This document shows positions 13,611 through 63,998 of a stretch of 64,000 nt of DNA, piece by piece. The notes below the pieces were generated by a model that was not told where the DNA came from, searched no databases, and worked only from the letters and a program-made list of their open reading frames with translations. Made by a program: the position numbers and the translations under genes. Numbering within the stretch: the stretch's first letter is position 1; each line of letters opens with the position of its first letter. The stretch is from a virus (Duplodnaviria; Heunggongvirae; Uroviricota; Caudoviricetes), in the IMG/VR virus record IMGVR_UViG_3300045591_000029, positions 64,001 to 128,000 of that record; one strand, written 5' to 3'.

Positions 13611-14663
13611 ATGACAAGTGTGATTAAATTAGATTATACTCTAGAGTCTCCAGAAGAGCGTAAAGCGCTAGTTGAAAAGATAATTGCGGAAACGCCGGAT
13701 ATTAGTCCCGCGTATCTTGAAATTTTAGGTAATTATCTTGTTCTCTGTATGGAAAAGCAAGAGCGAAAAGAACGCAATATACTGACAGATAACCGTATGA
13801 CTACGGTAAACAAGAGAGAATGTTCTTTCGAGGGTCTTGTTAGTTAGTTAGAGAACGGCGAAGATGGTATTTATAATTTAGTTAATGAAAATAAGAATGT
13901 AATTTTTCAACCGAAGATTTCGATTACAGATAAAGATTTAGAGACAATCCCCTGTTTGAAACAACTGCGAGATACTATAAACGCTTGGGAAGCAGCAGCG
14001 AAGCACGCCTCTGGTAAGACTGCTTTTATGATGAAGAAAGCGTTAATTGAGATGCGGAAAGACCAATATATTATTAAGCAGGCTTATTAGAAGCCAATCA
14101 TTCCATGCCGATTAACGAGATCTGCTAGAACATCGCTACCTCTTGATGATAAGAGTTATTTAGATGGTTCTGAAATCGTTGTAGATGGCATTTCATTAAT
14201 GGATACTAAAGTAGTATCTGCTATTTTATGTAATTATTCTAAGCTCAAGGAAGATAGTTGGGATTAGTTTGAGGGAGATACTTGGTATTTAATGCAAGAC
14301 TTTGATAACTTATGTACTAAGGCTCTTGCTGATTATCCTATCTATGATAGAATTGTTGAGTGGAAGATTGATGGTAAACCAAATAGCGAGATTCAAAAAT
14401 TACTTGATGAAGAATTTCATCAAACCTATAGTGTAGAATATATTTCTAGCCTATGGCGCAATAAGATTCCGAAGGTAATCGCAGAATAGGCTAAAGAAGA
14501 TTTCTTAATTTGGGAGTACACCAAGCGTGGATACCCCATGAAAAAATGCTCTAAATGTGGGCAAATTAAGCCAGCGAACAATCTTTTCTTTTCAAAGAAT
14601 AAGACAAGTAAAGATAATTGGTATTCTATTTGTAAGAAATGCCGTAATAAGAAAAGAGGTTGA
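13611..14663 (+). CDS. HTH- and zinc-finger-containing protein (recoded)
   Basis: Track fragments 13611 and 14292 join through TAGs into a 350-aa frame ending TGA; C-terminal CSKC...CKKC. Confidence 0.65.
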
Positions 14664-14668
14664 TTCGT

Positions 14669-15844
14669 ATGGCTGGACAGCATTTTTGCAAGAAGTGCGG
14701 AAAGACTATGAATGATAGTGAATTCTACACTTCTAAGAATGTAGAGAAATATCCACCTGATGGAAAGATGGATATTTGCAAGAAATGTTTAACCATGCAC
14801 GTCGATAACTGGGACCCAGAAACATATAAATGGATTTTACAAGAAATTGATGTGCCTTATATTAAAGAAGAATGGGATGCTTTACTTGAGAAATATGGTA
14901 AAGACCCAAAGAAGGTAACTGGATTAACTATTATTGGCCGTTACCTATCGAAGATGAAGCTAAAGCAATGGAGCCAGTATTCTTGGGCAGATACAGAATC
15001 TCTTGAAGAAGAGCAACGTATGCGCAAGATTAATCAAATGAAAGCGCAAGGTATGACTGGTGAAGAGATTGAGACTGAGCTTGCGACAGACAGAACTCCT
15101 CCTAAGCCCAAAATTTTAACTGAGCCACAAGAAGCTGTAGGTACTCCTGAATATTATGACCCTTCAGAAGCCGATGATGATTTCTCAGATGAACTTACTG
15201 AGGAAGATAAAGTAATGTTGAGACTTAAGTGGGGTCGAGGATACCGCCCAGAGGAATGGGTGCGGTTGGAGCAATTATATAATGATATGATGGCTTCATA
15301 TGATATTCAAGGTGCTGGCATGAAAGATACCCTTATCATGATTTGTAAGACTTCCTTGAAATCTAATTAGCTTCTAGATTGCGGCGATGTCGATGGTGCG
15401 CAGAAGATGATCAAGATGTATGATAGCTTGATGAAGAGCGCTAAACTCACAGCCGCGCAGAATAAAGCTGAATCTGGCGAGTTTGTAGATTCCATTGGCG
15501 AATTAGTTACAATTTGCGAACGCGAAGGATTTATTCCTCGCTATTACACTGATGGACCGATGGATAAGGTAGATAAAGTTTTACAAGACCTTCAACATTA
15601 CACTTACTCTCTTGTTACAGAAGAAATGAATCTCGGTAACATGATTGATGCATCTGTTAGAGCTATTGCTCAAGATAAAGAAAGAGAAGCTAAGATTGAT
15701 GTTGATGGTGGTGATGAAGAAGATAATGAGATTTACGATTATCCAGAAGATAAAGTATTGACTGATGCTGACTATGAAGAATTTGAAGAAATGAAACAAT
15801 AGGAAGCTGAGAAGGATAAGGAATATCTGCGGGAGGTGGAGTAA
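14669..15844 (+). CDS. zinc-finger protein, possible terminase small subunit (recoded)
   Basis: Fragments 14660 and 15407 join via TAG; N-terminal CKKC...CKKC; its TAA abuts the terminase ATG. Confidence 0.55.
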
Positions 15845-17584
15845 ATGGCATTAGCTGATTTATTAAACCTCTCCAATAAAAATAAGAAGATTGGTTTATC
15901 TGAAGAACGCGTGCGGGCAATCATTCCTGCGGCACGTCAATATATTGCTTTTTGGAGAGAATATCCTGATATCTTCGTCGATTTCCTTCAAACTGGCGGA
16001 GATCCTACTCGTAAGAAGGAGCTAAACTTCTTCTTCTATCAAAGAGTATTCTTGCGAGCTGCCATGCGCTACAAGTATGTATACATGGTATTCCCGCGTG
16101 CTTATTCTAAGTCTTTCTTATCTATCATGGTACTAATGTGTAGATGTATTTTGTATCCGAGAAGTAAATTGTTCGTTACTTCTGGTGGTAAGGAACAGGC
16201 TGCTGGCATTGCTAAAGAAAAGGTTTAGGAAATTTGTTAGAAGATTCCTGCGTTTGAAAGAGAGATTGATTGGCGAAGAGGTAAGACTCAAGAAGGTAAA
16301 GACTATTGTAAGTATATCTTTAAGAATGGTTCTTACTTTGATAACGTTGCTGCAAGAGAGAGTTCTCGTGGTAAGCGTCGTCATGGTGGTCTAATTGAGG
16401 AATGTGTTGGTGTTGATGGTACTATTTTGAACGAAGTTCTTATTCCTCTGATGAACATTGACCGTGAGTGTATGGATGGTACTGTTCAAGAGGCAGAAAC
16501 TTTGAATAAGAGTCAAATCTATGTCACCACCGCAGGCTGGAAGAATACTTTCCCATACAATAAGTTGATTCAGCTCTTGATTCGTATGGTTCTTGATCCA
16601 GAGAAAGCGATTGTTATGGGCGGTACTTGGCGTATCCCTGTATTAGTTGGTCTACAAAGTAAAAACTTTGTTCAAGAACTAAAGCAGGATGGTACCTTTA
16701 ATGAGGCTTCTTTTGATCGAGAGTATGAATCTCGTTGGAGTGGTACGGTTGAGGATGCATTCTTCAATGGCGAAGTATTTGACCGTAATCGTAAATTACA
16801 ACAACCAGAATATGAAGCTTCTGGTCGCTCTTCTGATAGAGCTTATTATGTCTTGTCTGTGGACGTTGGACGTAAAAAATGTCAAAGTGTAATTTGCGTT
16901 TTCAAAGTTACACCACAGTCCTAGGGACCTGCAATTAAGTCATTAGTTAATATGTTTACAATGGATGACGAACACTTTGAAGATTAGGCAATTAAAATTA
17001 AAAAGTTATATTATTAGTTTAAGGCTAAGACCGTTGTTATCGACGGTAATGGTTTGGGTGCCGGTCTAATGGACTATATGGTTAAGTCTCAAGTTGACCC
17101 TGAGACAGATGATTTTTTCCCTGATTTTGGCGTATAGAATGATGATGATGGAGAGTATAAGAAGTATAGAACTGATAGAACGGAATATGATGCTATTTAT
17201 GAGATTAAAGCTAATGCGCCAATTAACACCGAAGCTCACAGCAATGCATAGACGCAAATGCGGGCTGGCAAGGTGAAATTCTTAATTGACGAAAGAATTG
17301 CGAAGAACAAGTTGTTAGGAACTAAAAAGGGTCAAGCAATGAAACCAGAAGAGAGAGCGGCATATTTACAACCTTTCACTTATACTTCTATTCTGCGAGA
17401 TGAAATGCTGAATTTGCGCGAGGAAAATGAAGGCGTTAATATTATCTTGAAGCAAGCTAATAAATCTATTACAAAGGATAAATTCTCAGCTTTTGAATAC
17501 GGTCTATATTATATCAAGCAAGAAGAAGATAGTAAGCGCAAGAGAAAGAAAGGTCGCTTCGCTGATTTTATGTTTATTAGTTAA
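15845..17584 (+). CDS. terminase large subunit (recoded)
   Basis: 579 aa through at least 7 TAGs; PRAYSKSF (Walker A-like), RGKRRHGGLIEE (Walker B), YVTTAG coupling motif, LSVDVG and VIDGNGLG nuclease motifs. Confidence 0.9.
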
Positions 17585-17650
17585 GTGGGCATAGTTAAAT
17601 AATAGCCCTATTAGATTTTTTAATAATAGATAGAGGATGTGATTTAATCT

Positions 17651-18007
17651 ATGCGAGCATCAAGAGGAGAAATTAAGATACATGAGATCCTAGAAGCGAA
17701 TGATATTAACTTTAAAGAAGAGTATGAATTCGCGGGATTGAAAGCCCCTAGTGGACGTCCTCTACGATTTGATTTTGCCGTCTTTGATGATGATGGTAAT
17801 CTAGATTTCTTGATTGAGTATCAAGGAAAATAGCATTATCAAGCAGTCAGTAAATTTGGCGGCAATAGAGGATTGTATCAATAGAAATATAATGATAATC
17901 AAAAGAGGAGATTCTGCGCATTGAAAGGTCTTACTTTAATAGAGATTCCATATACGGATGAAAATATATTAACGTATGACTATATAATGCAGAAGGCCGG
18001 GTATTAA
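17651..18007 (+). CDS. PD-(D/E)XK endonuclease-like protein (recoded)
   Basis: LRFDFAV...LIEYQGK[TAG]HY restores the IEYxGxQH motif; TAA stop. Confidence 0.75.
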
Positions 18008-18021: not shown

Positions 18022-19626
18022 TTGCTTAAGCGCAGACAACAAGATATACGAGATAAAGGCTTTAATCTAATGGGCGAAGAAGATATGGCTCCACGTGATT
18101 ATGCTAAAATGCGGGTGGGCATTCGTACTGTGGATAATGCACTCGTAAATCTTGGCACTTACAAGAAGGTCAACCCAAACTACGGCGATAAGGGCTTTGT
18201 TCTCAATGCTATTTACCGACATGATTATAAGACACTAAGAGAGATTTCTGAATATTTCTTTGAGTCTAGTGGTATTTATTACAGATTGTGTAAATACTTA
18301 GCTACTCTTTATAGATATGACTGGTATGTAACTCCTTACTTTACAGATGTATCTAAGGAAAAAGAAAATAAGATTCTTGGTGACTTCTCAAAGGTACTAC
18401 TGTACCTTGATAGATCTGACGTTAAGCGACTATGCGGAAATATTGCTCTCGATATTATGAAAGATGGTGTCTACTATGGCATCTTCGTAGATTTCGGGGA
18501 TAGATTTGGTATCCAAAAACTTCCCGCTTCATATTGTCGTAATCGCTACTACTCTGGAGTTGATCCAATCGTAGAACTGAATCTTTAGTTCTTTGACGCC
18601 TATTTCTCTAATATTCAATAGAGAATGGCAATTCTAAAAACATTCCCCAAGGATGTTTAGCAAGGCTATGTCTTATACAAACAAGGCAAGCTTAAGGGGG
18701 ATTATCCAGGAGACTTAAGTTGCTGGTATCCTCTCGACCCCGCAGTTTCGGTGAAGCTGGGATTGAATGATAGTTGTTTTCCACCTCTTGTTGGAGTTAT
18801 TCCCTCTATCATTGACCTTGACCAAGCTCAAGAGTTAGATAGATAGAAGACAATGCAACAGCTATTAAAAATTATTATCCAGAAATTACCGCTTGATAAG
18901 AATGGTGACTTAATCTTTGACGTAGATGAAGCAAGAGACATCCATAATAACGCGGTCGCGATGCTTAAGCGCGCGGTTGGTGTAGATGTGCTTACTACTT
19001 TTGCTGATATTGAGAAGATTGATACCAAGGATAGTAATTCCAATACTACGACAGATGACCTTGAAAAAGTTGAGCGTACAGTATTTAACAATGCTGGTAT
19101 TTCTCGTAACTTATTCAATGCGGACGGCAATTTAGCTGTAACTAACGCTATCTTAACAGATGAAGCCAGTATTAGAGAACTACCTTTACAGTTTGCTAAT
19201 TTGTTGAATAAGATAGTGGAAAAATTTAATCGCAAGGGTCATTACGAGTTTAGAGTATCCATGCTAGAAACAACGCAATTTAACTATAAAGAACTAGCTA
19301 AGTTGTATAAAGAACACGCGCAAATGGGCTATCCTAAGATGTTGCCACAAATTGCTCTTGGTCATTCTCAATCTAGTATTCTGGCTACTTTAACATTCGA
19401 AAATGAGATTCTACATCTATCTGAGATTATGATTCCGCCCATGATGAGTAGCACAATGAGTGGAAGCGTGGTCAAAAAAGATTAGAATGATTAGAATAAC
19501 TCTTAGAATAAGTAGACAAGTTCAAGCACAACAAAAGTAACGGAACAGAAATAGTCTGGTCGTCCTGAAAAGTCCGACGAGGCAAAGAGCGATAAGACGA
19601 TTGCTAACCGTGAAAGCATGTCATAA
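18022..19626 (+). CDS. portal protein (recoded)
   Basis: 534-aa continuous frame between terminase and protease, ending in a GRPE...KSDKT tail. Confidence 0.75.
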
Positions 19627-19639: not shown

Positions 19640-20920
19640 TTGCATATTAGTATTCCTATTGCTAACACATTGGAATTCATCAATGCGACTGAAATATCTC
19701 CTTTAATCAGCAAGTGTTAGGTGAAGGTCTGCTATGTAGGACAAAATCCCAACAGAAACGGAACTGTTATCACTAAGAAAGTTGCAACAGAGATGGGTAG
19801 AAAACTGCCAGGTTCTCCCGTTGTTGGCTATTTTAATCAAGCAACAAACGATTTTGAAGGACACAACAAAGAGATTTCTCTGCGGGGTGGCGGAAATATC
19901 GAGGTTCTTGACACCACTAAACCATACGGTTTCGTCCCTACGGACGCGAAAGTTTGGTTCCAGAAGTTTGATGACGAAGGCGTTGAGCGTGAGTATCTTG
20001 TAACTGAATGTTACATCTGGACGAGCGCTTACCCTGAATCTCAGCGGCTATTCGAGCATGGCAACAATCAGTCTATGGAACTGAATAAAGAAACTCAAAA
20101 AGGTTTTTGGGCAAAAGATAATAATTCGGGTAGTAGATTTTTCATTTACAATGAAGCATTGATTGAAAAACTTTGTATTCTCGGAGAATCAGTTGAGCCA
20201 TGTTTTGAGGGCGCACAATTCAAGACTGAATTCTCCCTAGAGAACATGGAAGAACTTAGAACTACGATGTTCTCTATGCTAACTGAATTACAGAAAACTT
20301 TGAATAAAGGAGGCTCTCACGAGACTATGGACGAGAATAAAAAGACTCTCGGCAACCCCGAGGATCCTAACTTCGAAGCAAAGAAGCAGCCTGAGGACGA
20401 GAACAAGAAGAAACCAGAAGGCAATCCTGCTCCAGAAGATAACAAGCCAAAGGACGGCGACAATAAGCCTGCCGATAATAACAAGGAAGAGCCTAAGAAG
20501 AAGTACAATCTTGATGAAGTAACTGAGTATACTGAGTTACTTGGTAAGTATGAGACTCTTCAGGGCGAATTTGAGACTCTTAAGCAGGAGAAGAGCGACC
20601 TTGAGACAGAGGTAACTTCTCTCAGAGAGTTCAAGCTAACTGCGGACCGCAAGGAAAAGCAGAGCATGATTGATGGTTTCTATATGCTGAGCGACGACGA
20701 CAAGAAGGATGTCGTTGAGCATATTGATACTTATTCTTTAGATGACATTGAAGCGAAGCTGTCTATTCTCTGCGTTCGCAACAAGGTCAACTTTAACCTT
20801 AATAACAACAATGAATAGGACGATAACCAGCCCAAGGGATTGTTTAATCTTGAAAATCCCGCTGATGATAATGTCCCAGAGTGGATTAAGGCAGTTCGCG
20901 AAACCGCGAAAAAGCTATAA
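19640..20920 (+). CDS. prohead protease/scaffold protein (recoded)
   Basis: TTG start after GGAGGG; SPLISKC[TAG]VKVCY...NRNGT; C-terminal low-complexity and coiled-coil scaffold region; upstream of capsid genes. Confidence 0.7.
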
Positions 20921-20935
20921 GGAGGATTAAATAAT

Positions 20936-21616
20936 ATGGCTAAGAGTGCAAAGCGTTTAGGCAACGCTACTTTTGTAACTTACGGATATGGCCAGGTTGA
21001 ACCTAACCATATGTCCGCTAAGCGCAATGGCCAGGTGTACGCTCAGCTTCCCGCAGCGGCAAGCATCGAGCTACTTGAGAATGGCCAGTTCGTAAAATAC
21101 GATTATGCCAAGGGTGTCTGTGACTTTGATGGTGCAGGTCCATGGCGCATGGTTTTCAATGAAGTAAAAATTTATGAGGATCGCGAGACTGATGCTGATT
21201 TCGCTATGATTAAGGACCGCTACAATGCTCGTGTCTATAGCCCAATCGGTCAGACTAAGTCCGATCTTAAGACCGTTCTTGATTATACTGGTGAGGCTGT
21301 CCGCGAGGGTAGCAACGCTGCTTTCAAGAAGGAAGTTGAGACTTTTAACTATCCTCAGCTAATGCCAGATGGCACTAAGATGGTTCCTCGTGTTATCGCT
21401 GTCCCTAACGGCGACATTTGGACTACTAATACAATTAAGGCTGAAGCTGGCTCTCTAAGTGTTGGCGATCAGCTCAAAATTGATACTGATGGTTATCTGA
21501 CTAAGGATGAAGGTAAAACCGCAACAGGCGGAGACGAAGATCCTAAGTTCGTGGTTGTAAAGGTTTACACCATGCCTGACTTACAGCCTGGCGTTAAAGT
21601 TCAGCGCATTGGTTGA
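20936..21616 (+). CDS. capsid-associated (decoration-like) protein
   Basis: 226 aa directly before the MCP, strong SD, no TAG. Confidence 0.55.
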   Translation: MAKSAKRLGNATFVTYGYGQVEPNHMSAKRNGQVYAQLPAAASIELLENGQFVKYDYAKGVCDFDGAGPWRMVFNEVKIYEDRETDADFAMIKDRYNARVYSPIGQTKSDLKTVLDYTGEAVREGSNAAFKKEVETFNYPQLMPDGTKMVPRVIAVPNGDIWTTNTIKAEAGSLSVGDQLKIDTDGYLTKDEGKTATGGDEDPKFVVVKVYTMPDLQPGVKVQRIG

Positions 21617-21634: not shown

Positions 21635-22663
21635 ATGGATAAGGCTAATTTACTACAGTTAATGAAGAATGTAGCTAACGCTACTCCTTCTACTAACTTC
21701 TCTTATAATAACGAGAATCTCTCTTACAGCGCTATGAACGAGACTCTTCGTAGTGAACTCAACGCTCTCGTTGGTACTGAAGAGCTTTATGAGCAGAATA
21801 AGCGTTTGGTATTCTCTCTCATGGAGCAGACTATGGACGATATCGTTCCTAATCGTCTGATCAACGCTTATGGTCAGTTCGCTGAGATTCAGACATTCGC
21901 TCAGGGTGATCGCCCCGTCTTTAAGCGTAGAACTGGTAAGACTCGCGCTAAGCAGTTCATCACTCGTGTCGGTCTTGCCGGCGTATACGAGACCTTCAAG
22001 CTCGGTTCTGAGAGTTTCGAAGTTGGTACCAGTGCTATCGGCGGAGCCGCTCAGATCGGCTTCGAAGAGTTCCTTGACGGTCGTGTGAACTTCGCTGAAC
22101 TCACTCAGATCATTATGGATGGCATGGACGAACTCATTTATCGTGAGATCGCTCAGGCTCTTATGGGCGCAGTTGATCAGCTTCCCGCTGCTAACCGTGT
22201 AAGCGCTGCTGGTTTCGATGAAACTGGTCTTGACCGTCTTGTTACTACCGCAAGTGCTTATGGCACTCCTACTATTTACTGCACTCGTGAGTTCGCAGTA
22301 AAGATTGTTCCTGCTGAGGGCTGGATCTCTGATGAAATTCGTAACGAGCGTTGGAACACCGGTTATCTTGCTAACTATAAGGGTGTTCGTGTTGTAATTC
22401 TTCCTCAGACTCTTGAGGATGAAACCAACAGCCGTAAGGTAATCGATCCTGGCTATGCTTGGGTTATTCCTTCTGGCGCTGGCGAGAAGCCTGTTAAGGT
22501 TGCTTTCGAGGGTACCACTCACGTTCGTGAGCGTAATGATAATGATGACTGGTCTCGTGACATCCAGGTCTACCGCAAGGTTGGCGTTGGTGTTATGATG
22601 ACTAACAACATCTTCTCTTACGTTGATACTCAGCTTCAGGGCAAGCTTGACGTAATTCAATAA
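21635..22663 (+). CDS. major capsid protein
   Basis: 342 aa, strongly biased codon usage, position after protease/decoration genes, followed by terminator ~22672-22700. Confidence 0.8.
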   Translation: MDKANLLQLMKNVANATPSTNFSYNNENLSYSAMNETLRSELNALVGTEELYEQNKRLVFSLMEQTMDDIVPNRLINAYGQFAEIQTFAQGDRPVFKRRTGKTRAKQFITRVGLAGVYETFKLGSESFEVGTSAIGGAAQIGFEEFLDGRVNFAELTQIIMDGMDELIYREIAQALMGAVDQLPAANRVSAAGFDETGLDRLVTTASAYGTPTIYCTREFAVKIVPAEGWISDEIRNERWNTGYLANYKGVRVVILPQTLEDETNSRKVIDPGYAWVIPSGAGEKPVKVAFEGTTHVRERNDNDDWSRDIQVYRKVGVGVMMTNNIFSYVDTQLQGKLDVIQ

Positions 22664-22734: not shown

Positions 22735-25700
22735 ATGAAAGACCAGTGTAATGTCACTAACAAGAGCGCAGGCTTTGTTATTTATAATATCCCCGAATTG
22801 GGCGTCCGCAGAGAGTTCGCTCCTCATGAAACTAAGCATATCAAGGTTGATGAGTTAGATTCTCTGTCTATGATGGGCGGCGGAAAAGAGCTTATCTATA
22901 ATTATCTCTTTATTAACGATGATGAAATTCTTCGTCATTTACTTAATAAGGATGTAGAACCAGAGTATTATCTGACTGAGGAACAGATTCCCAGCTGGAT
23001 GGAATCTTGTTCTATTGATGAATTTAAGGATGCTCTTGATTTCGCTCCTAATGGCACAAAAGATCTTATTAAGCAGTACGCTGTTAGTAAACCATTAAAT
23101 GACTACGATAAGAGAGAGGCTATTAAAGCCCAGCTTGGTTTTGATGTGAGCAAAGCTATCGAAAATATGAAGCCTGACGAGAACGAGAAGAAGAGCGAAA
23201 AGGTTATCAGCACTCCTGCGGCAACCGGACGTCGTTCTTCTACCACTACAATTAAAAAGCCCGTGGAGGCTAAAGAATAAGGGAGGTAATCCCCATGGAT
23301 GAAAAATATCCAATTCAAGGGGATCCTACACCCTTTGAAGATATATACAATCGTTTCTTCGGTAAGATTACAGACGATATGTATATGGAGTGGACTGAGG
23401 AAGACACCAAGAAAGATTTGCTAAATATCTTACTTGATGCCATCCCAGGATTTGAATTTCCGCGTTTTCCACTCTATGATTATGACGTGAATGGTGAGAC
23501 TTTTAATTGCCATTTAACTTCCGAAGAAATTAACATTCTTGCGCTACTAATGTATAATACTTGGCTTCAGCGTCAAGTGGCGTCTGTTGAACAGATGAGA
23601 ATGAAATACTCTGGTAGCGATTTCAAAATGACCTCTCAAGCAAACCATCTCGCTAAATTAATGGAACTTAAGAAAGAGGCTGAGCGTTAGGCGCATCATA
23701 TGCAACGCCTCTATAAACGCAGAAAGATGATTGATAATAACGGCTCTATTAAGTCTAACTGGTCTACTCTTAGAGAAACGAGTACCTTCGATGGATAAGT
23801 ATAATATTAACTTTCCAATGAGTACTATCGACCAAGATATGAAGAGACTTATCAATCAACTATGGAAGTTAATTCCTATGCGTGAAAATGGAGAAGATTG
23901 GGAGACACATCTAAAAACTATGCTAGAAGAAATTTCTGGTTTGGTGCATATTTACAAGGATAAAGTAGAAGGATTAATTTTATTATCAAAGTTAGAGGGC
24001 TTAACCTCAGATGCTTGTAATGATTTTATGATTTATAGAAAGACTGTATTTAGATGTATCGATCTATTAACTCAGGTGATTCGCAATGATTAATTTAGAA
24101 TTAATGCGGAAGAGATTCGAGTGGCAAGGCGGTATTCATCAGGAAGACCGCATGATTAAGGATAAACAACGCACTTTACATAGAGCTTTGTTATATTCTT
24201 ATCAAGCTGCTTCGATTGAGATGGTTTAGAGAAATACAGAAGTGCTTGAGATTGAACCCTCCGGTGTAGATGCGGACATGGGGGTTTATGGAGAGATTCG
24301 CGCTCTTATCAATCCAGATAAGGTAAAGCAGGATTACGACGACAAGATCGTTTCTATTGATTACGAGCATGGTTATGAACCTGGTGATGTATTTGAATGG
24401 AAGAAAACAAATACATATTGGCTGATCTATACTCAAGAGATTACTGAAGATGCCTACTTTAGAGGAGAAATAAGACGCTGTAGATATAAGATTCGTTTCA
24501 AGGATTAGGACGGAAATTGGTGTTCTACTTATGCGGCCATTCGAGGTCCAGTAGAGACACAAATCAATTCTATTCAAAAGAATCAATAGAGAATTGATAC
24601 TCCTAATCTAAGTTTGAATATTCTTATGCCGCGTAATGAAAAGACACTTCATGCTTTTGATAGATATTCAGAATTTATCTTTGCGGGGAAGTGCTGGAGA
24701 GTTGAAGCTCCAGATTCGATTAGTATGAAAAATATTATCGAAGTCAATGCGGAAGAGAATTACTGGAATGATACCACTGATGACCTTGAGAAAGAGATGA
24801 AGGATGGTTTGGTTTTTGAACCTACTAATCCTACTCCTGATAGCAAGATTATCGGTGAGACTTTTATAAAGCCGAAAATTGCGGCTACTTACTCCGTCGA
24901 TATTGCGGACGGAGAATGGAAGATACTTGAAAATGTACCTGCCTGTTTACAGGTAACTGGAAATTAGACAGCTACAGTGATTTGGAATAAAACTACAAGT
25001 GGTCAATTCACATTACAATGGACAAAGGGTAATGATGTAAGAGAAAAGGTCGTTGTAGTTGAATCATTGTATTGAGGTGATCGCGCATGAAACATAATTC
25101 ATATGAGTACCCCAAGTCTAGTTTATTGGGTATGCCTAAAGACGCGGCGATTATTATCGACCGTATTCTATCAAATCCTAATCTCTTGAGATTATTAGTT
25201 TATGAAACAAGAGACTGGCAATCTCAACCTTTACCAAACGGAGAACAGATTAAGGAACTATTTACTAGTCATCAGATTTCATCTGTCCCAAAGATTAAGA
25301 TTGATAGTAAAGAAAAAACCTATATTAGATTGACTTATGGCACTGTCATTAGAAACGCTTCGAATCCAGAATATCGAGATAATACATTTGGTATTGATAT
25401 TATTTGTCACTATGACAACTGGGATTTAGGAGACTTTGAGCTACGCCCTTATAGGGTCGCGGGAGAGATAGATGCCATGCTTGATAAAACTCACTTAACC
25501 GGCATCGGTGAACTTGAGTTTGTATCTGCTACCCCCTATGTATATAACGAAGAATTTGCGGGAGTGTCTCTGACCTATCTAGCTGTTAGAGGTCATGAGG
25601 ACTAGAAAAATCCTGTAAATGGCTGACTATAGACTAGCTTTAATGGCCGGGATTGATATTCCTATTCCTGAATTACAATTAACTGTCCATGTCCCGACCA

Positions 25701-27318: not shown

Positions 27319-27483
27319 ATACTCTGGAGGCCAATGACGCGGAATCTAAATATACAGAACCAGTCCAGACCCAATCTGCTGCTAAACGACTAAGCTTTAT
27401 AGCGGATGAAGATGAGGACTTAATCTGAGTTTAAGGGAGGACTTAATGTCCTCCCTTTTTCTTTTTATCTGGAGGTAAAGGAG

Positions 27484-29590: not shown

Positions 29591-29699
29591 GTAATCTAAT
29601 TAAATTCTCAGATTAAGTAGAGAATTAAAAGGCTCTTGAGGATACTAATTCTCAAGAGCCTTTATTTTGTTATATAGGTGTTAAAGGAGGAAAAGGACT

Positions 29700-42358: not shown

Positions 42359-42371
42359 GGAGGAATAAATA

Positions 42372-46423: not shown

Positions 46424-46428
46424 TATTC

Positions 46429-48333: not shown

Positions 48334-48346
48334 GGAGGAGAGGGCG

Positions 48347-48925: not shown

Positions 48926-48937
48926 GGAGGTATAGAC

Positions 48938-52163: not shown

Positions 52164-52809
52164 AATCAAGCTCTACCTGTTCTAGCTCCTCTAAAGAAGC
52201 TGCTCCATAAATAGAGATTTTATACTACTGCATTTGACGATACATTGGATATACAGCCGCAGAGATGGACATAGACAATGCAACAAGATTTTCTAATGTC
52301 CAAGGCTAGCACTCTTCGTGTCGAGCGTGCCATTCCAGAGTTGGAGATTCAATACCTGCCTGAACGGCGATCTGATATTGACTTAAGTTAAGACTAATCT
52401 CAGATTGATCCTCCATTGTAACTCCATATTCTTTTCCATCTGTCCATGTTAATGGATGAGAAGCAAGATACTCTGCGAAAAGTAGCTTGTTCTTCTCTTG
52501 CTTAAGCTCTTTAGCTTCATCTAAACTATAGCGATAAACAAAACTCTGAGTTTCATTATCGAACTTATATAGGTTAGGCGTAACAGTAGATGGAATTTCT
52601 TCAACCTCGATAACGCGAACTGCGTTAGGAGAGTTAATTGTATCAGCTTGGATTAAGACATAATGAGTATCACAATCAGAGCCAATAACCCCAGTGCCTT
52701 CTTCTTCTGAGCAGGCAACGACAATACCATTAGAAGATTGTAGTTTAATGTAACGAAGATTGTCGAGAATATCAACTACAATATTCTCACGATTTAATAA
52801 TACATACAT
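52144..52809 (-). CDS. DUF4376-like tail fibre assembly protein (recoded)
   Basis: Track ORF extends through two TAGs to TAA (221 aa); EDQSEISLNL...WHARHEEC...LEELEQVELDY pattern. Confidence 0.6.
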
Positions 52810-54023
52810 TACTTTATTTCAACTCCTTTGAATAATGAACGAAAATAATTATCCATATCTTGGATAATATAGAAGCTTGAACCTTTAGCGATATGTGCTC
52901 TCCAACCTTGATAAGATTTCTGAATTTCTTCAGTAGGAATTTTACCTTGTTGCCATAGAGCAGCCATTTTACGCAATTTTCTGCGCTAATGCACAATCTT
53001 TTTCTTAAAAGGTATCTAGATTACATGATTTGTAGTAGTTAGATAGAAATTCCATTTAAGATACTTAAATGGAGTACCATGAACCCTATCTTTAGATGCG
53101 ATAGGGGTAATACGCGAGATAGTGGTTTTCTTCTAGTTAAGAGTAAGACCTATATCTTTTAATTTCTTCTCTATCTTAGCTTTACATTCTGCTAAGTATT
53201 TGCTATCGTTACATAGAAGATAAGAGTCATCCATGTAGCGTCCATAATACTTAATATGTAATTCTTCTTTAATGAAATGGTCAACTTCGTTCAAGGCTAG
53301 CAATGCAAACAACTGTGATGTCTGACTTCCTAATCCAAGACTTTTAGCTTCACACTCATAATATTGATGATGCGGTCGGAAAGACTGGATATCCGCAGGT
53401 ATATATTTTCTACCTTTAGCAATATAATACTATTTGCCCGGAATTGGATGCTTATCTTTTGTTAGCTTAAAAGAAAATGTATCAATTAAGTATGAGCATA
53501 ATTCATAGATTTGAGGATCTTTAATAACACGCTTAGCGATTTCTTTAAGAGCCTCATGGTCGATAGAATCAAAGTATTTACGAATATCAATTCGTAAAGT
53601 AAAGAAATCATTTCCTAACCCGTATTCTCTATGAGCCATCTATAAATGTTTCTTTGCTCTTGTTAAAGCAAAATCTATACCTCTATTTTTAAGTGTTGCA
53701 CAGTTATCATAAATAAACTTAGGAGTTAATTCTGGTAATAAGCTCTATTCACATAAAGCATTTTGTACCAGTCTGTCGTTGATATGGCACGCTCTTATAT
53801 CTCGTGGCTTGCCTCGTTCAATGATTGAGAAACAACTAAACACAAGCTACTTGTATTCACAAGCTCGCAAATCAGCTTCTGTTTGTAAGATTGTTTCAAT
53901 TCTATTCTCTTCAAAATTGATTGTACTATCTTTCCATCGAACATTTCGACAAACTCGATAAGAGGAATCATATAATGCGTCAAAACTACAAAAACGCTCG
54001 AAAGATGTCTACTACTAACTCAA
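52809..54023 (-). CDS. DGR reverse transcriptase (404 aa, 10 in-frame TAG)
   Basis: DRLVQ, RGIDFA, IDIRKYFDSIDH, GLGSQTSQ and RYMDD (53226-53237) motifs; TTG start after AAGGAG; adjacent to TR. Confidence 0.92.
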
Positions 54024-54327
54024 CTTCTTTCTCCTTATCATACAGTAATAGCGGTTACTTCGCGAGCTCCGCATCTGTAATCGTATTCATTTATCCGTCG
54101 CAGAGACGAAATAGTCAAGTTCTCCTTAGATGAAAAGGCATCTACCTATAATATACTATTTAATAATATGTTCTATTCCTTCTCCTTCTTAGTCCACAAG
54201 AGTGAACCAATGCATCCAGAATAAACCATAATTAGATGGACAATAATATATTCTGGGGTACTATTCTAGGTGTTGCTCGTCTGCGCTGCTTCGCAGCTTG
54301 ACTTGCAACGTGATAGCTCCATCTAAT

Positions 54328-54427
54328 CCGGCGCGAGGCCATTGCTGTTGTTGTAGTTGTTGTTGTTCGCGTTCCCGTTGTTGTTAACATTGCACACGTT
54401 GTTCGAGTTGTTGTAGTTGCGCGAGCG
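54328..54427 (-). repeat. DGR template repeat (TR)
   Basis: 100 nt, AAC-rich (37 adenines on the coding strand), identical to VR except at adenines. Confidence 0.95.
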
Positions 54428-54459
54428 AAAAATACAGAACTTGACATCTTGTAAAATCA

Positions 54460-54954
54460 TTACCGACCTCTTCTATAACTCTTTGGCTTCTAGTAGGAAT
54501 GCTCGTAGATTAAATAATCTCGATTAACTCTATCCTATAAAGTTTCTTTCATAGCCTTTGTTAAACGAGCAAGATGCTCAAAAGAGCGCCGTTTCTTCTG
54601 GTTAGTCTATGCGTATTCGAAGATACAGAGATCGATTTGACGAAAGATACTGTCGCAATAAGCGATAGCCTAATTCCAATATTTCTTTCGTGCAATTAAA
54701 GTTTCCTAACTATTCAAGTAGATCTCGCTAGCTTGATAGCAGGCGGCATGTATGCCCTTTCCGCATTTGATAATATCTAGCCCGAACGCTTGGAAAGGTT
54801 GTCCCTCTCCAAGCAATCCAGGTTTTTTAATTTGTTTTCCAGATTCGTCAAACTCTCTAGGACGAGTTAAGACTAAAATGTAATTTACCAGTTCGCGTGA
54901 TTTCTAGAGACACTCACGCTTGGATTTATGTCGATCTTTTGTTTTTACAGACAA
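54460..54954 (-). CDS. avd: DGR accessory variability determinant-like protein (164 aa, 6 TAG)
   Basis: TTG start after AAGGAAGG; MSVKTKDRHKS..., basic and helical, located between VR and TR. Confidence 0.7.
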
Positions 54955-55035
54955 AATTAACGCCTTCCTTTCTCATTATTTATATGAGAAAACTGGCTAA
55001 CATTTTAATCTATACTGTCCCACTTTTGAAAGTTT

Positions 55036-56814
55036 TTAATTACCAATGACGAAAGCCGGCGCGAGGCCATAGCTGTTGCTGTAGCTGCCGCGGTTCGCGG
55101 TCCCGTTGCTGTTAACACGGCACACGCGGCTCGAGTTGTTGCAGTAGCGCGAGCGCTCCCATGGATAACCGTAACTACTCGTGGATATATCACCTAAATA
55201 CATGATACGCGTAGCATTACTAGTATAGTAACTATAAGCAAAATTCTTGCCTTGGGTACATTCTGCTTTACTAGTAGAGCTATTAGCAACAGATAATGGA
55301 GAATCAGAATCAAGACCAAATTCTCTTTCTGAAAGTAAGAATACGGTTTCATCATTATAAGTTACATCGCCATTACGAGAACTATTAGTAGATGGACAAG
55401 TGCCTTTTTTAATAGTCTTAATAGAGGCTTTACCGGGAAAAGCGTTATAATAGTTTTGACATAGACTTCTAGCAGTAGAACCAATCCAAACTGCGTTGCT
55501 ACCAAACGCAGTATACTGAGATAAACAGTTTTTAGTCTGGAATGTAACTGTATTATTAGCATCTTGATCTACACCAATAACTCTAATTAAGTGAGTAGTA
55601 GTTCCTAAAACTGCGCTTGAAAGTGTTACAGATTTAGTAGTACCAAGAATAGCACCACCACTACTAGTTTTAATAGACGCGCCACTATGAGATGCAAGAT
55701 AGTTCTTTAATCCGGCAAACCATGCTGCATCAACAGTATCACCATCAGCGCCCCAAGACCAATATTCTGCACTAACAGTAATTGTTTTGTTAGAGGGTGC
55801 AGTATGGTTAGTGCCAGCCGCGACTTTAATCGTAATAGTAGTAGCAGAAACTGGAGTAGAACCATTACCCTTAATAGTAAGAGTATTGCCACTAAGAGAT
55901 AAAGTCAAACCAGAAATACTGGTAGGACTATAACTAATAGCACCATCACCTGCGCGAGTAATAGTAACAGCTACACCGGAACTATAGTTATTACCATTAA
56001 TGGCCACTGTTGTTGGGCTTACATTCAAACTACCTGTTGCTTTATTGATTGTCCAGTTGACATTGATCGCGCTGGTCGTTCCGTCCGCCCAGCGATAATT
56101 GCTTCCTGGTGTAAAGGTAGCAATATAAGTGCCAGCATTAGTTGCAGATGTTGTGTCACCGATAGTCATGTAACTGGTGTTATAGTTATTCCAGTAGCTG
56201 GTGCTACTAACTGACTGCGCGCTTCCAGTATATGTAAGATTACTTTTCCACGTAGGTTTGGCTATAGACTTACGATTGACTGTGACATTAAAAGTCGCAG
56301 TTTGAGTAACTCCATTTTCTGTGTAGCTAATTGTAACTACTTGATTTCCAATAGTTGAAAAAGTTGTTGGAGAACAAGAGTAATCAGTTACAGTTTTAGT
56401 TTGAGAATCGGAATAACTAGCTGTCACTACCATACCCGCGGTAGCAAGAGTATCTCCATACTCATAAGTCAACTTATTGGGTTTAGTAGTTACAGTAATC
56501 GCGGAGAGCCTATGCGTGACTGTGACTGCTAAAGTCGTAGTGCAAGTTTCTCCGCCCTCAGAGTAAGTGATGGTTACGGAAGTAGTACCATCAGCTAAGA
56601 CGCTAGGGGATACAGAATATCCACTAACTTCTGCGGTTGCTAGAACCGCTTGCCCAGTACCATAAGATGCAGTAACGACCATGCCGGCGCTATTGAAGCT
56701 GTCGCCCGCAAGATAGCTGGTCTTAGTAGGCTTAGTGGTGACTTCGATCTTCATAAGAACGATGCCGCTTCCTCCACCTTTTCCGCCTTGCTCAGCTAAA
56801 ATACACTTAGGCAA
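55036..56814 (-). CDS. DGR target: Ig-like-domain adhesin/receptor-binding protein with C-terminal C-type-lectin-like variable domain
   Basis: TTG start after AAGGAGG (592 aa); two TTKPxKxxY...AGMVVTASY Ig-like repeats; C-terminal WERSR..VR..YGLAPAF. Confidence 0.85.
   Translation of the reverse strand: MPKCILAEQGGKGGGSGIVLMKIEVTTKPTKTSYLAGDSFNSAGMVVTASYGTGQAVLATAEVSGYSVSPSVLADGTTSVTITYSEGGETCTTTLAVTVTHRLSAITVTTKPNKLTYEYGDTLATAGMVVTASYSDSQTKTVTDYSCSPTTFSTIGNQVVTISYTENGVTQTATFNVTVNRKSIAKPTWKSNLTYTGSAQSVSSTSYWNNYNTSYMTIGDTTSATNAGTYIATFTPGSNYRWADGTTSAINVNWTINKATGSLNVSPTTVAINGNNYSSGVAVTITRAGDGAISYSPTSISGLTLSLSGNTLTIKGNGSTPVSATTITIKVAAGTNHTAPSNKTITVSAEYWSWGADGDTVDAAWFAGLKNYLASHSGASIKTSSGGAILGTTKSVTLSSAVLGTTTHLIRVIGVDQDANNTVTFQTKNCLSQYTAFGSNAVWIGSTARSLCQNYYNAFPGKASIKTIKKGTCPSTNSSRNGDVTYNDETVFLLSEREFGLDSDSPLSVANSSTSKAECTQGKNFAYSYYTSNATRIMYLGDISTSSYGYPWERSRYCNNSSRVCRVNSNGTANRGSYSNSYGLAPAFVIGN
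55056..55155 (-). repeat. DGR variable repeat (VR)
   Basis: 3' end of the target gene; 16 mismatches to TR, all at TR adenines; shared GC-rich 3' end GGCCTCGCGCCGG. Confidence 0.95.
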
Positions 56815-56869
56815 GATTATAACCTCCTTCGTATCTAGCTCTTTTAAAAATACCAAAAGATTTTCCGAG

Positions 56870-57046
56870 AAAAAGTACACTTTTTTATGGGAAAAATACT
56901 CCCAGAAACTAGATAATAAAAAATTGGGAAAAAGGTATAGAAACCCTTTTCCCTTCAAGTAGGTATCTTACCTTTTCAGATATACATAAAAAACAAGCTA
57001 AGAAAATTATTTATGATTGACCAAAGCCCAGTTAAGTGTACTTTTT
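56870..57046. promoter_or_regulatory. putative invertible segment bounded by 13-bp inverted repeats
   Basis: AAAAAGTACACTT (56870-56882) and AAGTGTACTTTTT (57034-57046); the left site is a palindrome around an asymmetric AC core. Confidence 0.6.
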
Positions 57047-59038: not shown

Positions 59039-59644
<606 letters not shown>

Positions 59645-59693: not shown

Positions 59694-60077
59694 ATGCCAG
59701 AAATTGTGATTCAGATTATCCAGGTATGTGTTATTCCTTTGCTCGGTATCTTGACTAAATATCTCGTTGACTACTTGACTGCTAAGCGCAATGAGATTAA
59801 CTCTAAGACCGATAATGAGACTGCTCAGAAGTACACTAATATGATTTATCAGACTGTTGTTGATTGCGTTATTGCAACCAATCAGACCTATGTAGATAGC
59901 TTGAAGAAATCTGGAAGCTTCGATGAAGCAGCTCAGAAGGAAGCATTTAACCGCACAATGAACGCTATTATGACTATTCTAAGTGACGATGCCAAGGAAT
60001 ATATTACCGAGGCTACAGGTGACTTGAATACTTATCTCACTCAGTTAATTGAGTCTGAGGTCAATAAGCGCAAATAA
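59694..60077 (+). CDS. putative holin (LL-H-like)
   Basis: Single N-terminal TM segment plus helical domain ending LIESEVNKRK; followed by a terminator at ~60085-60108. Confidence 0.6.
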   Translation: MPEIVIQIIQVCVIPLLGILTKYLVDYLTAKRNEINSKTDNETAQKYTNMIYQTVVDCVIATNQTYVDSLKKSGSFDEAAQKEAFNRTMNAIMTILSDDAKEYITEATGDLNTYLTQLIESEVNKRK

Positions 60078-60223: not shown

Positions 60224-60869
60224 TTGGCAACTAATTATCCATACTATCCACAGCAACCTATGTATCCAAGACCAGGTATTCAATATGTGGATCAGACCTA
60301 GCCGCAAATGGGTATTAAAGGCCGGCCTGTATCTTCTATTGAAGAGGCCCGCGCCATTAGCATTGATTTCGATGGCTCTGTATTTTATTTTCCCGACTTA
60401 GCAAATAGACGCATTTATACTAAGCAAATAAACATGGATGGCACAGCCAGTCTTAATGTTTATGAGCTAAAGAATGAGCCAGTCGTCAGCTCTCCTCAGT
60501 ATGTTACTAGAGAAGAGTTTGAGACTACATTAGCGCAATTAAAACAAGCTATGTTAGGAAAGGAGCCAGAATCTCAGTCCGCATCGGCATAGCCGCAGTA
60601 GACTGAGAAATTTAAGTTTTAAGGAGACATGAATTATGAACCCAATGCAACTTATCCAAATGCTTAGGAGTGGACAGAATCCTTAGCAACTCGCTATGAA
60701 TCTGCTAGAAAGCTAGATGGGTGAGACCCCAATGGGTCAAAACCTTTTAAACCTAGCCAAGAATGGTCGATCCGCAGATATTGAGCAAATTGCTCGTAAC
60801 TTAGCTAAACAATAGGGAATAGATTTCGACAAAGAATTTGCCGCCTTTAAAGAGATGCTTGGCCTTTAA
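60224..60869 (+). CDS. two recoded hypothetical proteins (60224..60622; 60636..60869)
   Basis: First: Y/P/Q-rich N-terminus plus IDFDGSVFYF...RIYTKQIN core. Second: MNPMQLIQML..GQNP[TAG]QL. Confidence 0.7.
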
Positions 60870-62803: not shown

Positions 62804-63128
62804 TATTAATGGGGTAAGTTGGAGGATATTGCTAGTACCTCCAACTTCCTCTACTCTTGCTAGGAGCGATGGGTCATTAGCTTCTGGTGTTTGTGATAAT
62901 GATACTAAATGTATCTATATCAATGAGAATCTTAATTCTTCTTTAATGAAGAGAGTGTTATGTCACGAAATAACTCATGCTGCTATGTTTAGCTATGAAA
63001 CTGATTTAACCGTTGAACAAGAGGAACTATTAGCGGATCTAATAGCTACCTATGGACAGGAAATAATTTCTAAAACCAATGATATATTTCAACGATTAAA
63101 AGCAAATAAAGGGGACTTGTCAAGTTAA
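62796..63128 (+). CDS. HExxH zinc metallopeptidase-like protein
   Basis: IYINENL...VLCHEITHA...EELLAD. Confidence 0.7.
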   Translation: MLNINGVSWRILLVPPTSSTLARSDGSLASGVCDNDTKCIYINENLNSSLMKRVLCHEITHAAMFSYETDLTVEQEELLADLIATYGQEIISKTNDIFQRLKANKGDLSS

Positions 63129-63152
63129 AGACAAGTCCCCTTTATTTTTTTG

Positions 63153-63584
63153 TTATTCGGGTTTAATTGGTAATTCCAATGCTAATTCATAATATTCTTT
63201 AGCTTGACCATTTCCGCCTAATCCAGAATATATTCGATAAAACTCACTTAATTGGTCATATTGTTCTTGTGCCATATAACCCTATTTAATATAAGCTTTA
63301 CAAAGCTAAACCAAACGGAATTTATAAGACGAAATAATTAGCTGCATATGACTTTTCTCAATATCTTTAGTTTCCATGATATATTTTCGAAGTTCTTCGA
63401 TCTCTTTCTGAATCGGTTCAATACGAGAATCTATAGTTTTTTCTAGCTCAGTGTCTTTATTCTCTTCAAGTAATTTTTTGTAATTCTTTAACTAGCTATG
63501 TAAGTATTTACAAAAAGCTAAGGCTCCCGCTGATACTAAGCCGAAAAAAATTTCAACTAAATGTTCAGCAATAAAAGTAAACAT
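63153..63584 (-). CDS. membrane-anchored protein with LGGNG motif (recoded, 3 TAG)
   Basis: AAGGAGG SD; N-terminal TM segment, coiled coil, FYRIYSGLGGNG; missing from the ORF track. Confidence 0.6.
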
Positions 63585-63659
63585 AAAATCCTCCTTCCTT
63601 AAACCTCTCAAAAAATTTAAGAGTTAAGAAAGGAGGATTATTTTATTTAGACCGCATTC

Positions 63660-63998
63660 TTACCAAGCGCATTTATTCTTCTTGATATGATGAGTTCCAA
63701 TACATACAGCATCCGCGATATCCTAGATAACATGGATACCATAATTCTATTCTACATATAGTTGAGCATTCTTTTTCTATTCTGCTCTTGTTCGACCCTT
63801 AATGCCTAAAGTAGATTTCCAAGATGCGGCGAGAACTGTTGAATGAGGAATCTGGATTTCTTGTAGTAACTCTGATACAACTCCATAAACCTCTGCCAAG
63901 ACCTTAAAGGTCTAAACATTATTAGCCACATTGTTCTATTGCTAAATATCTTCAAAGATTACTTCGTCGATATTATAATCTGCAACTAAAGTCTAAAT
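63660..63998 (-). CDS. RuvC-like Holliday junction resolvase, C-terminal part (recoded, 7 TAG)
   Basis: VIFEDI[TAG]Q[TAG]NN, WKSTLGI, AE[TAG]KK and DIADAVCIG; runs off the window edge. Confidence 0.7.

Follow-up and report, generated by a model that had tools for sequence, protein, structure and literature searches.

How is the triplet TAG read in a phage genome whose terminase, portal and tape-measure genes are all interrupted by it? The question is raised by a 64,000-nucleotide (nt) stretch of DNA, hereafter the window, which spans positions 64001–128000 of a single IMG/VR record of a tailed phage (IMGVR_UViG_3300045591_000029; Caudoviricetes; 138,828 bp, GC content 39.9%, rated 95% complete) and represents the late half of a siphovirus-like gut phage of ~139 kb. 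An earlier reading of the DNA letters and their open reading frames (ORFs), referred to here as the sequence-only reading, had claimed that TAG is recoded to glutamine (Gln) genome-wide (genetic code 15). In this study, we followed up the claim in the whole record and in related phages. TAG is an ordinary sense codon that terminates practically no gene in any part of the genome, and comparison with relatives indicates that it is translated as Gln, i.e., reassigned from stop as in NCBI table 15, an assignment to which we give a probability of about 93%. Positions are those of the window unless they are marked as genome positions.

The window opens with a block of small, presumably early minus-strand genes (1–13573) that have hardly any in-frame TAG. 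A plus-strand block, from 13611 to ~51.7 kb, begins with a sigma-factor-like gene, a gene of unknown function, the gene for the terminase large subunit (TerL), a homing endonuclease gene, the portal gene and the head genes, and continues with tail genes, the gene for a tape measure of 2905 amino acids (aa) and baseplate/fibre genes. Beyond ~51.7 kb lie a minus-strand cassette resembling a diversity-generating retroelement (DGR), then an invertase gene, a holin gene and further genes. Translation of 13611–63998 with table 11 yields short, broken ORFs, and long frames emerge once TAG is read through. Our curated list for this region comprises 44 genes that cover 96.2% of the DNA, with 190 in-frame TAG among 16,246 codons, distributed over 30 of the 44 genes, and not a single in-frame TAA or TGA. 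All 44 genes end at TAA (36 genes) or TGA (8 genes), as the sequence-only reading had stated for the ends that it had checked. The TAG-bearing genes include the following.

13611–14663, plus strand: sigma-factor-like protein with an HNH tail, first gene of the late block; phrog_5767 (1.9e-43); four in-frame TAG, ends at TGA
15845–17584, plus strand: TerL, 579 aa; seven in-frame TAG, ends at TAA
17651–18007, plus strand: homing endonuclease between TerL and portal; phrog_9084 (6.6e-29); two TAG, contains the motif IEYQGK-TAG-HY
18022–19626, plus strand: portal, 534 aa; phrog_2739 (4.8e-83, residues 61–532); nine in-frame TAG
27484–28992, plus strand: late protein of unknown function, 502 aa; 14 in-frame TAG, the highest density in the head–tail block
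29700–38417, plus strand: tail tape measure, 2905 aa; phrog_4211 (5.3e-54); 34 in-frame TAG, no TAA or TGA before its end
38468–50857, plus strand: seven tail/baseplate genes of 1296 (38468–42358), 277, 120, 913, 634, 192 and 639 aa, with 17, 6, 2, 14, 10, 2 and 6 TAG
52809–54074, minus strand: DGR-type reverse transcriptase (RT), 421 aa; Pfam RVT_1 (1e-15), phrog_1423 (1.9e-83, residues 16–415); ten TAG
59039–59644, plus strand: serine recombinase/DNA invertase, 201 aa; PDB 2r0q, Sin (1.4e-31), Pfam Resolvase (1.3e-28); six TAG
63660–64000, minus strand: RuvC-like resolvase, 159 aa, the gene extending past the window to 64139; nine in-frame TAG

The claim that essential genes (terminase, portal, tape measure, RT, recombinase and RuvC-like) are single frames broken only by TAG was borne out with the counts given above, and the identities that had been proposed for these genes all hold by profile or alignment matches. 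For the structural genes, Pfam returned hardly any matches, and their identities come from PHROGs, from tblastn searches against cultured phages and from a fold search. All seven TAG codons of TerL fall inside one alignment with the TerL of Enterococcus phage H1 (49.7% identity over 99% of the length); the TerL of Geobacillus virus E3 is 49.3% identical, and a PDB sequence search with TerL gave no match. Ten more PHROG families besides phrog_4211 match the tape measure, nine of the ten being tape-measure families, and the tail gene at 46429–48333 matches the phrog_1887/32343 tail protein. The RuvC-like protein matches Pfam PF02075 over residues 5–150 (8e-5; 23.0 bits, cut-off 22.2), while family searches (Pfam, PHROG) with the 502-aa protein gave no match. 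The motifs that the sequence-only reading had quoted for TAG at Gln positions (IEYQGK-TAG-HY, DQNLDR-TAG and GQNP-TAG-QL) occur exactly as given, at 17813–17839, 59072–59092 and 60672–60692.

If the TAG codons were true stops, the interrupted genes would be pseudogenes, split genes or products of assembly or sequencing artefacts, and the long frames would be accidental. Public records of relatives, translated with table 11, do consist of fragments: three 'hypothetical proteins' lie beneath the TerL match in the GenBank record of phage phAss-1, and PHROG families 15503 and 24618 correspond to the N- and C-terminal halves of the window TerL, evidently having been built from table-11 fragments of recoded relatives. 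However, the coding frames of the region contain TAG only, whereas their off-frames are full of all three stops. Genome-wide, genes of at least 150 aa contain 212 TAG and neither TAA nor TGA in 30,305 codons of the coding frame, whereas the +1 frame of the same genes contains 605 TAA and 512 TGA. A chance origin of the long frames is excluded because the frame of 2905 codons holds 34 TAG and no other stop. Moreover, many TAG positions are kept across independent assemblies, the remainder swap with Gln codons, and single alignments to standard-code proteins span TAGs. We consider the chance that the TAGs are true stops to be negligible.

Coding density was determined with our own gene caller, which uses a three-periodic Markov score and a greedy choice of non-overlapping genes.

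Table 11: 0.674 for the genome and 0.651 for the region 13611–63998, with 81 genes in the region
TAG as sense: 0.819 and 0.918, with 40 genes
TGA as sense (control): 0.650 and 0.635, with 79 genes
TAA as sense (control): 0.621 and 0.619, with 74 genes

The density check of code 15 versus code 11 that had been suggested with the original claim thus came out in its favour. It counts against this result that the caller was trained on TAG-sense ORFs, a mild circularity favouring code 15; raw stop-to-stop cover is independent of that training, as are the TGA and TAA controls, and all of them agree with TAG as sense. Recoding of TGA or TAA, considered also for the poorly covered window 1–13600, was rejected: raw stop-to-stop cover increases whichever stop is removed, and the scoring caller gains for TAG-sense only. 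The low cover of 1–13600 is simply that of small minus-strand genes. The caller is crude, having truncated RT and missed an Avd-like ORF, and the coordinates of both were taken from the ORF list. In practical terms, annotation with table 11 splits the 44 genes of the region into ~81 pieces, and phages of this family need code-aware annotation.

Across the genome, the caller placed 239 in-frame TAG in 55 of 164 genes, of which 127 end at TAA and 37 at TGA. At most five of the 164 could plausibly end at TAG, as compared with ~16% of ORFs in standard-code relatives; five TAG-terminated early ORFs that appeared in a greedy ORF count were discarded, being mostly pieces of longer TAG-containing frames. 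The position of TAG within genes is uniform (Kolmogorov–Smirnov p = 0.19). The word genome-wide in the original claim therefore stands as regards termination, a role that TAG has lost everywhere, and not as regards its use as a sense codon, which is strongly biased by gene class, as described below.

TAG could also have a dual meaning, ending a few genes or stopping translation early in infection and being read as Gln only when the suppressor tRNA is abundant, in a regulated read-through. This would suit the avoidance of TAG by early genes and five genes in which TAG is followed by only 10–41 codons before TAA or TGA (e.g., genome 16663–17223, 11053–11259 and 52063–52407). Likewise, no release factor 2 (RF2) or anti-release factor 1 (RF1) function was found in the genome, so host RF1 should still compete. 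However, no gene requires an end at TAG, and five of 164 at most is far under the proportion in standard-code relatives. With 239 TAGs distributed uniformly, ~24 are expected by chance in the last tenth of a gene, and proteins with 14–34 TAG could not be made in useful yield unless per-site read-through were near complete. We regard a dual meaning as unlikely.

The residue inserted at TAG was approached through 42 related loci collected via the portal (98, 92, 72, 65 and 47% identity) plus four whole relatives. The portals of relatives G001, G002 and G003 are 98, 92 and 72% identical to that of the window, and whole-genome comparison gave 95, 78 and 64% identity. In-frame stops of the related loci that lie inside protein alignments comprise 1405 TAG, 7 TAA and 2 TGA (~99% TAG), and whole-genome alignments contain 214, 220 and 329 in-frame TAG of these relatives with only 0–1 other stops each. 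At the window's TAG sites, relatives of at least 85% identity have CAG at 12 sites, CAA at 10, GAG at 3, and TAT, CTG and TTG at 1 each. Reciprocally, at the relatives' TAG sites the window codon is CAG in 23 cases and CAA in 17, any other codon occurring at most twice. CAA is two mutations away from TAG, and the TAG/CAA swaps are therefore not mere mutational proximity. The check for another residue in alignments, which had been suggested as a way to refute the claim, thus returned a predominance of Gln codons (22 sites, 40 reciprocal) with all others at three or fewer.

Protein alignments gave a similar picture. Of the TAG sites of G001, G002 and G003, 64, 46 and 41% align with Gln in the window genome, a 14- to 20-fold enrichment; at the positions where these relatives have their own Gln codons, the proportions are 94, 71 and 54%. 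Glu and Lys come next after Gln, as with ordinary Gln codons, and Ser, Leu and Tyr are never enriched in the window genome at these TAG sites. Against the crystallised Sin recombinase (2r0q), the invertase TAGs fall on Gln at three of five alignable sites, one of them being a conserved Gln of the N-terminal catalytic motif of Sin, and residue 381 of TerL, encoded by TAG, is Gln in H1, E3 and phAss-1. The statement that TAG sits at Gln positions is consistent with all these comparisons. In comparison with the standard-code phages, Gln is the top residue at six (H1) and one (E3) of the window's TAG sites; this Gln signal is weak because identity to these phages is ~28–50% and most TAGs occupy variable positions. 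It should be weighed against the assignment to Gln that comparison is the sole source of the residue at TAG.

The tRNA that would read TAG lies outside the window, in which a tRNA search found no tRNA genes. The minus strand of the genome carries, at 35.5–53.8 kb, 31 tRNA genes and a transfer-messenger RNA (tmRNA) gene, oriented like the early/middle genes. In accordance with the suggestion that a CUA tRNA be sought in the full genome, ARAGORN found exactly one tRNA(CUA) (genome 49146–49236, minus strand), which precedes the window by 14.8 kb. This 91-nt tRNA scores 54.5 bits against the Rfam tRNA family. Its cloverleaf carries a fifth arm, a 4-bp hairpin in a variable region of 20 nt, and it does not have the shape of a class I tRNA, in which the variable loop is 4–5 nt. 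The same tRNA is present in identical form in G001, and the copy in G002 is 93% identical, with a C-to-T change that preserves the hairpin pairing. In G003, the 72% relative, the tRNA(CUA) is a normal one of 76 nt without the fifth arm. Two further features of the array were recorded. The tmRNA gene is full length (genome 45841–46181, minus strand, inside the tRNA array; Rfam RF00023, 76 bits, E = 2.8e-28), and ARAGORN reported two tRNA-like genes with 8-nt anticodon loops (taaa and tgtt) at genome 40913–40986 and 47955–48029, minus strand.

A weak or unpaired 1:72 position together with G73 is part of the identity of tRNA-Gln, a rule derived from work on E. coli. Position 1:72 is unpaired (U/U or U/C) and residue 73 is G in the suppressors of all three relatives, which also have G2:C71 and C3:G70 except for the U/C variant of G002. 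The acceptor end of the window suppressor has unpaired U1/U72, G2:C71, C3:G70 and G73; that of the phage tRNA-Gln(UUG) has A1:U72, G2:C71, C3:G70 and G73. In G003, the acceptor stems of the suppressor and of tRNA-Gln(UUG) are almost equal. The suppressor hence appears to be a derivative of tRNA-Gln that would have gained its extra arm in the window lineage without a change of meaning. On the other hand, a 20-nt variable region with a fifth arm belongs to class II and is usual in tRNAs for Ser, Leu and Tyr but not in tRNA-Gln, which counts against Gln; with such an arm, charging of tRNA(CUA) by the Gln pathway is not assured.

This feature bears on the possibility that TAG is a sense codon for a residue other than Gln, either Ser, considering that the 91-nt tRNA(CUA) with its 20-nt variable region and G73 resembles phage tRNA-Ser genes, or glutamate (Glu), considering that relatives at 47% portal identity read TAG as Glu (see below). 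However, in the lineage that has the long arm (G001, G002 and loci of at least 85% identity), the codons exchanged with TAG are CAA/CAG at 22 sites and 40 reciprocal ones, and GAG at three. Ser codons occur at none of the window's TAG sites in relatives and at two sites (TCG, AGC) reciprocally. The enrichment of Gln at TAG sites contrasts with values of ~1-fold for Ser and Glu, and the acceptor end of tRNA(CUA) matches tRNA-Gln and neither tRNA-Ser nor tRNA-Glu. We judge another residue to be very unlikely. Ser, Leu or Tyr, to which the long variable arm and G73 of tRNA(CUA) had drawn attention, were rejected as contradicted by codon swaps in the lineage to which this tRNA itself belongs.

How the suppressor would be supplied with Gln and prevail over termination is suggested by the gene content. 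Genome searches found no gene with an RF-1 domain, hence no RF2, and no gene of the GlnRS/GluRS family (glutaminyl- and glutamyl-tRNA synthetases). Since the phage has no detectable release-factor or GlnRS/GluRS gene, charging would be performed by a host enzyme, and RF1 would merely be outcompeted. In the mechanism that we propose, the host has a standard genetic code; the suppressor would be charged with Gln by one of the host's enzymes, either directly by GlnRS or by formation of Glu-tRNA followed by amidation; and the accumulated suppressor would then outcompete host RF1 at TAG. A familiar counterpart is E. coli supE (glnV), which has a tRNA-Gln body with anticodon CUA, uses the host Gln pathway and inserts Gln at UAG, but is a partial suppressor in a cell where UAG is still a stop. 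In common with supE, the window tRNA has G73 and a 1:72 position that is weak or unpaired, features typical of tRNA-Gln; unlike supE, it is phage-encoded, serves 239 sense TAGs and has a 20-nt variable region with a fifth hairpin. It offers a well-resolved case on how an unusual tRNA with five arms would be accepted by the Gln pathway of the host.

The phage might instead simply match a host bacterium that itself uses TAG for Gln. In a bacterial scan with one genome per species, relatives were met only as phage-sized contigs in bins of metagenome-assembled genomes (MAGs); these whole-phage contigs lie in bins of several phyla, a point to be counted against the assumption of a standard-code host. 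The possession of the phage's own tRNA(CUA) together with TAG-free early and most abundant proteins is, however, sensible only if TAG is unreadable at the start of infection. No bacterium with TAG as Gln is known. In the hosts of TAG-recoded phages studied to date, the code is the standard one (Borges et al., 10.1101/2021.08.26.457843; PMC10607447). We consider it extremely unlikely that the host reads TAG as Gln, and we retain as the proposed mechanism a phage-borne suppressor acting in a standard-code host.

The use of TAG differs greatly among gene classes. Per 1000 codons, TAG occurs 11.4 times in the late block, 9.9 times in the RT/recombinase region, 3.8 times in the replication region, 2.1 times in the small early genes and 0.9 times at the far end, and the few TAGs of the small genes at 1–13573 sit near doubtful N-termini. 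Expressed as a share of Gln codons, TAG accounts for ~25% in the late block versus 6% in the small early genes (Fisher p = 3e-9). Seven late-block genes, including that for the major capsid protein, have no TAG among a total of 48 CAG/CAA codons (P = 1e-6). The TAG-free genes and the DGR-like cassette are represented by the following.

21635–22663, plus strand: major capsid protein with a predicted HK97 fold, 342 aa; no TAG, CAG:CAA = 15:1
54460–54954, minus strand: small ORF between RT and the DGR target, Avd-like by position only; six in-frame TAG
55036–56958, minus strand: protein with Big_3 and DUF6273 domains, candidate DGR target, 640 aa; Pfam Big_3 (3.9e-14), DUF6273 (1.5e-12); no TAG
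59694–60077, plus strand: holin, 127 aa; phrog_13712 (8e-34); no TAG

The capsid assignment comes from an AF2 model (mean confidence score, pLDDT, 73) whose Foldseek matches are phage capsids and encapsulins (E ~1e-10, probability 1.0), and the 342-aa protein is on this model the major capsid protein. A family search with the small ORF at 54460–54954 gave no match. Within the DGR-like cassette (52809–56958), RT, the adjoining small ORF and the Big_3/DUF6273 target contain 10, 6 and 0 TAG, respectively: the diversifying machinery relies on the suppressor, and the candidate target gene does not.

Outside the late block, TAG-rich genes comprise six GIY-YIG/HNH homing endonucleases, an endolysin and an initiator-like gene. 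The six TAG-bearing homing endonucleases, with 3–12 TAG each, are located as follows.

Genome 3273–4100: homing endonuclease
Genome 20614–21348: homing endonuclease
Genome 24589–25323: homing endonuclease
Genome 26633–27382: homing endonuclease
Genome 29075–29830: homing endonuclease
Genome 52898–53635: homing endonuclease

Counted over the whole genome, seven homing endonucleases (GIY-YIG, HNH) have 2–12 TAG each, and some of them are the most TAG-dense genes outside the late block; these selfish genes are adapted to the recoded state.

Two trends accompany this distribution: the TAG share declines with CAG preference (Spearman rho = -0.72) and with GC content at third codon positions (GC3; rho = -0.71). 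On these two trends, TAG has the character of an AT-type Gln codon of low efficiency. We propose that it is a slow codon, which would be tolerated under weak translational selection and excluded from genes that are read before the suppressor accumulates or that need very efficient reading. Avoidance of TAG would make the small early genes and the virion proteins of highest abundance readable, or efficiently readable, without the suppressor, and the tail, tape-measure, portal, terminase, endolysin, RT, invertase, RuvC and homing-endonuclease genes would need it. As a full account of the pattern, a strict late-gene timer was rejected. The holin has no TAG, the capsid and other abundant virion proteins have none either, and in the early/middle region the initiator-like gene and several endonucleases carry 3–12 TAG, all of which weighs against such a timer. 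Any timing role of TAG would be partial and not that of a strict late-gene gate. The phage offers a well-resolved case on whether stop recoding is a late-gene timer, and a low-efficiency Gln codon fits it better than a strict gate.

The recoding of TAG to Gln had been described by the sequence-only reading as established for some gut phages; this is correct and understated. The use of TAG as Gln with a phage-encoded suppressor tRNA(CUA) has been described for phAss-1 and a wider group (Babkin et al. 2023, PMC10607447), which is filed in the NCBI taxonomy as 'Caudoviricetes code 15 clade'. The phages phAss-1, ctckW2 and ct6IQ4, which make up the proposed genus Phassvirus and share 80–86% nucleotide identity, are human gut phages of 133–138 kb with a tape measure of ~3000 aa and with TAG in the TerL, portal and tape-measure genes and in numerous others; their group has two or three suppressor tRNAs and a large tRNA set and lacks a dedicated aminoacyl-tRNA synthetase (PMC10607447). 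Like phAss-1, the window phage has a ~135-kb genome, a ~3000-aa tape measure, a tRNA array with the CTA suppressor, no aminoacyl-tRNA synthetase and TAG as Gln. Unlike phAss-1, it has a single suppressor tRNA, which bears an extra arm, and its GC content is 39.9% versus 44.5%. The portals of the two phages are 37% identical and their TerL proteins 44.5%, and megablast of 19.4 kb of the window against a phage collection including phAss-1 gave no match. On the grounds of 37–45% protein identity and no nucleotide match, the window phage represents a new lineage that is not part of Phassvirus, and its sequence places it in the broad phAss-1 assemblage but outside that proposed genus. Homologs are also found in Enterococcus, Lactococcus 949-type and Geobacillus E3 phages.

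Code 15 is also used by crAss-like, Lak and 'gemstone' phages (Yutin 2021, PMC7886860; Borges et al., 10.1101/2021.08.26.457843; Peters 2022, PMC9523058), and TAG as Gln in gut phages has been proven by metaproteomics (PMC9523058). The window phage resembles them in reading TAG as Gln, in having a suppressor tRNA(CUA), which is often present there, and in the enrichment of recoded codons in genes for structure and lysis and their rarity in early ones; the TAG pattern fits the published enrichment (Borges et al.). It differs in that the lineages are unrelated, Lak and crAss-like phages infecting Bacteroidota, and in that some of those phages encode RF2, which was not found in this genome. Another contrast is that holin and capsid are free of TAG in the window phage, and the endolysin and many homing endonucleases contain it.

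A comparison closer to home revealed a second meaning of TAG. Where relatives with a 47% identical portal have TAG, the window residues are Glu (41%), Asp (11%), Lys (8%) and Gln (5%), a profile that resembles the one at these relatives' own Glu codons and not that at their Gln codons. Among 79 loci of this group, TAG swaps with GAA (20), GAG (4) and CAA (1) at 85% identity or more, and with GAA (62), GAG (38) and CAA (12) at 65–85% identity. The standard-code phage H1 has Glu at 24 and Gln at 4 of this group's TAG sites, and the tRNA(CUA) of the group has a paired C1:G72. This sister clade, with a portal 47% identical to that of the window, reads TAG as Glu and not as Gln; its members include L042 (IMGVR_UViG_3300021399_000006) and, in part, loci L039–L043, L085–L106, L108 and L121–L157. 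Like the window phage, these rumen-type phages (genomes of 110–142 kb) belong to the same portal/terminase family and have tRNA(CUA) in an array, with a nearly identical T-arm; unlike it, they swap TAG with GAA/GAG, have a suppressor with paired C1:G72 and form the sister portal clade. The literature that we searched contains no report of TAG as Glu in phages, and only TAG-to-Gln and TGA-to-Trp changes were seen in phages whose code differs from that of the host (Borges et al., 10.1101/2021.08.26.457843). A blanket translation with 'code 15' would misassign the residue in the Glu-reading relatives.

Other members of the portal family use yet other codes. In-frame TGA is aligned with tryptophan (Trp) in loci L123, L130, L135–L141, L144, L146, L150, L153, L156, L158 and L159, L135 having TGA on Trp at 14 of 16 sites. 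Loci L107, L109–L118, L120, L124, L147, L151 and L154 are without in-frame stops and correspond to the standard code. At least four coding states would thus coexist in one phage family. In a portal tree, the window lies inside a monophyletic clade with TAG as Gln (support by the approximate likelihood-ratio test SH-aLRT, 96), and the sister clade (SH-aLRT 95) mixes standard-code members, TGA-as-Trp members and two TAG-as-Glu groups; the tree is a quick one based on a single gene, and the code states of short loci may be under-called. Gln-type and Glu-type suppressor tRNAs are ~75% identical and differ mainly at the acceptor end, the Gln type combining an unpaired position 1:72 with G73 and the Glu type having C1:G72. 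If the hosts amidate Glu-tRNA to Gln-tRNA, such a change could let a suppressor escape from or enter amidation.

On balance, we slightly favour a scenario in which the window phage is the Gln branch of one siphovirus-like gut/rumen family of ~110–150 kb with repeated stop-codon changes, namely TAG to Gln, TAG to Glu (in at least two sister lineages) and TGA to Trp, with standard members between them, and in which a few tRNA changes may set the residue. TAG as Gln is itself already published; what is added here is the position of the Gln-reading and the Glu-reading lineages as sister branches within a single family. This family context, with Gln-, Glu- and Trp-recoded and standard branches side by side, is the more valuable lead.

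Two minor observations concern the relatives. Phage-sized contigs of 148–155 kb whose TerL is 69–85% identical to that of the window (L178, L179, L181 and L199) occur in MAGs of Oscillospiraceae, Eubacterium and Lachnospiraceae, and shorter relative contigs are binned as Bacteroidales, Treponema and Gastranaerophilales. Contigs of relatives are binned in MAGs of several phyla, so the bin in which a contig lies does not indicate the host. In a TAG-as-Glu relative (IMGVR_UViG_3300021399_000007), ARAGORN reported a tRNA with anticodon UUA, of the ochre-suppressor type, at L164:2853–2927; the locus of this genome has only one in-frame TAA.

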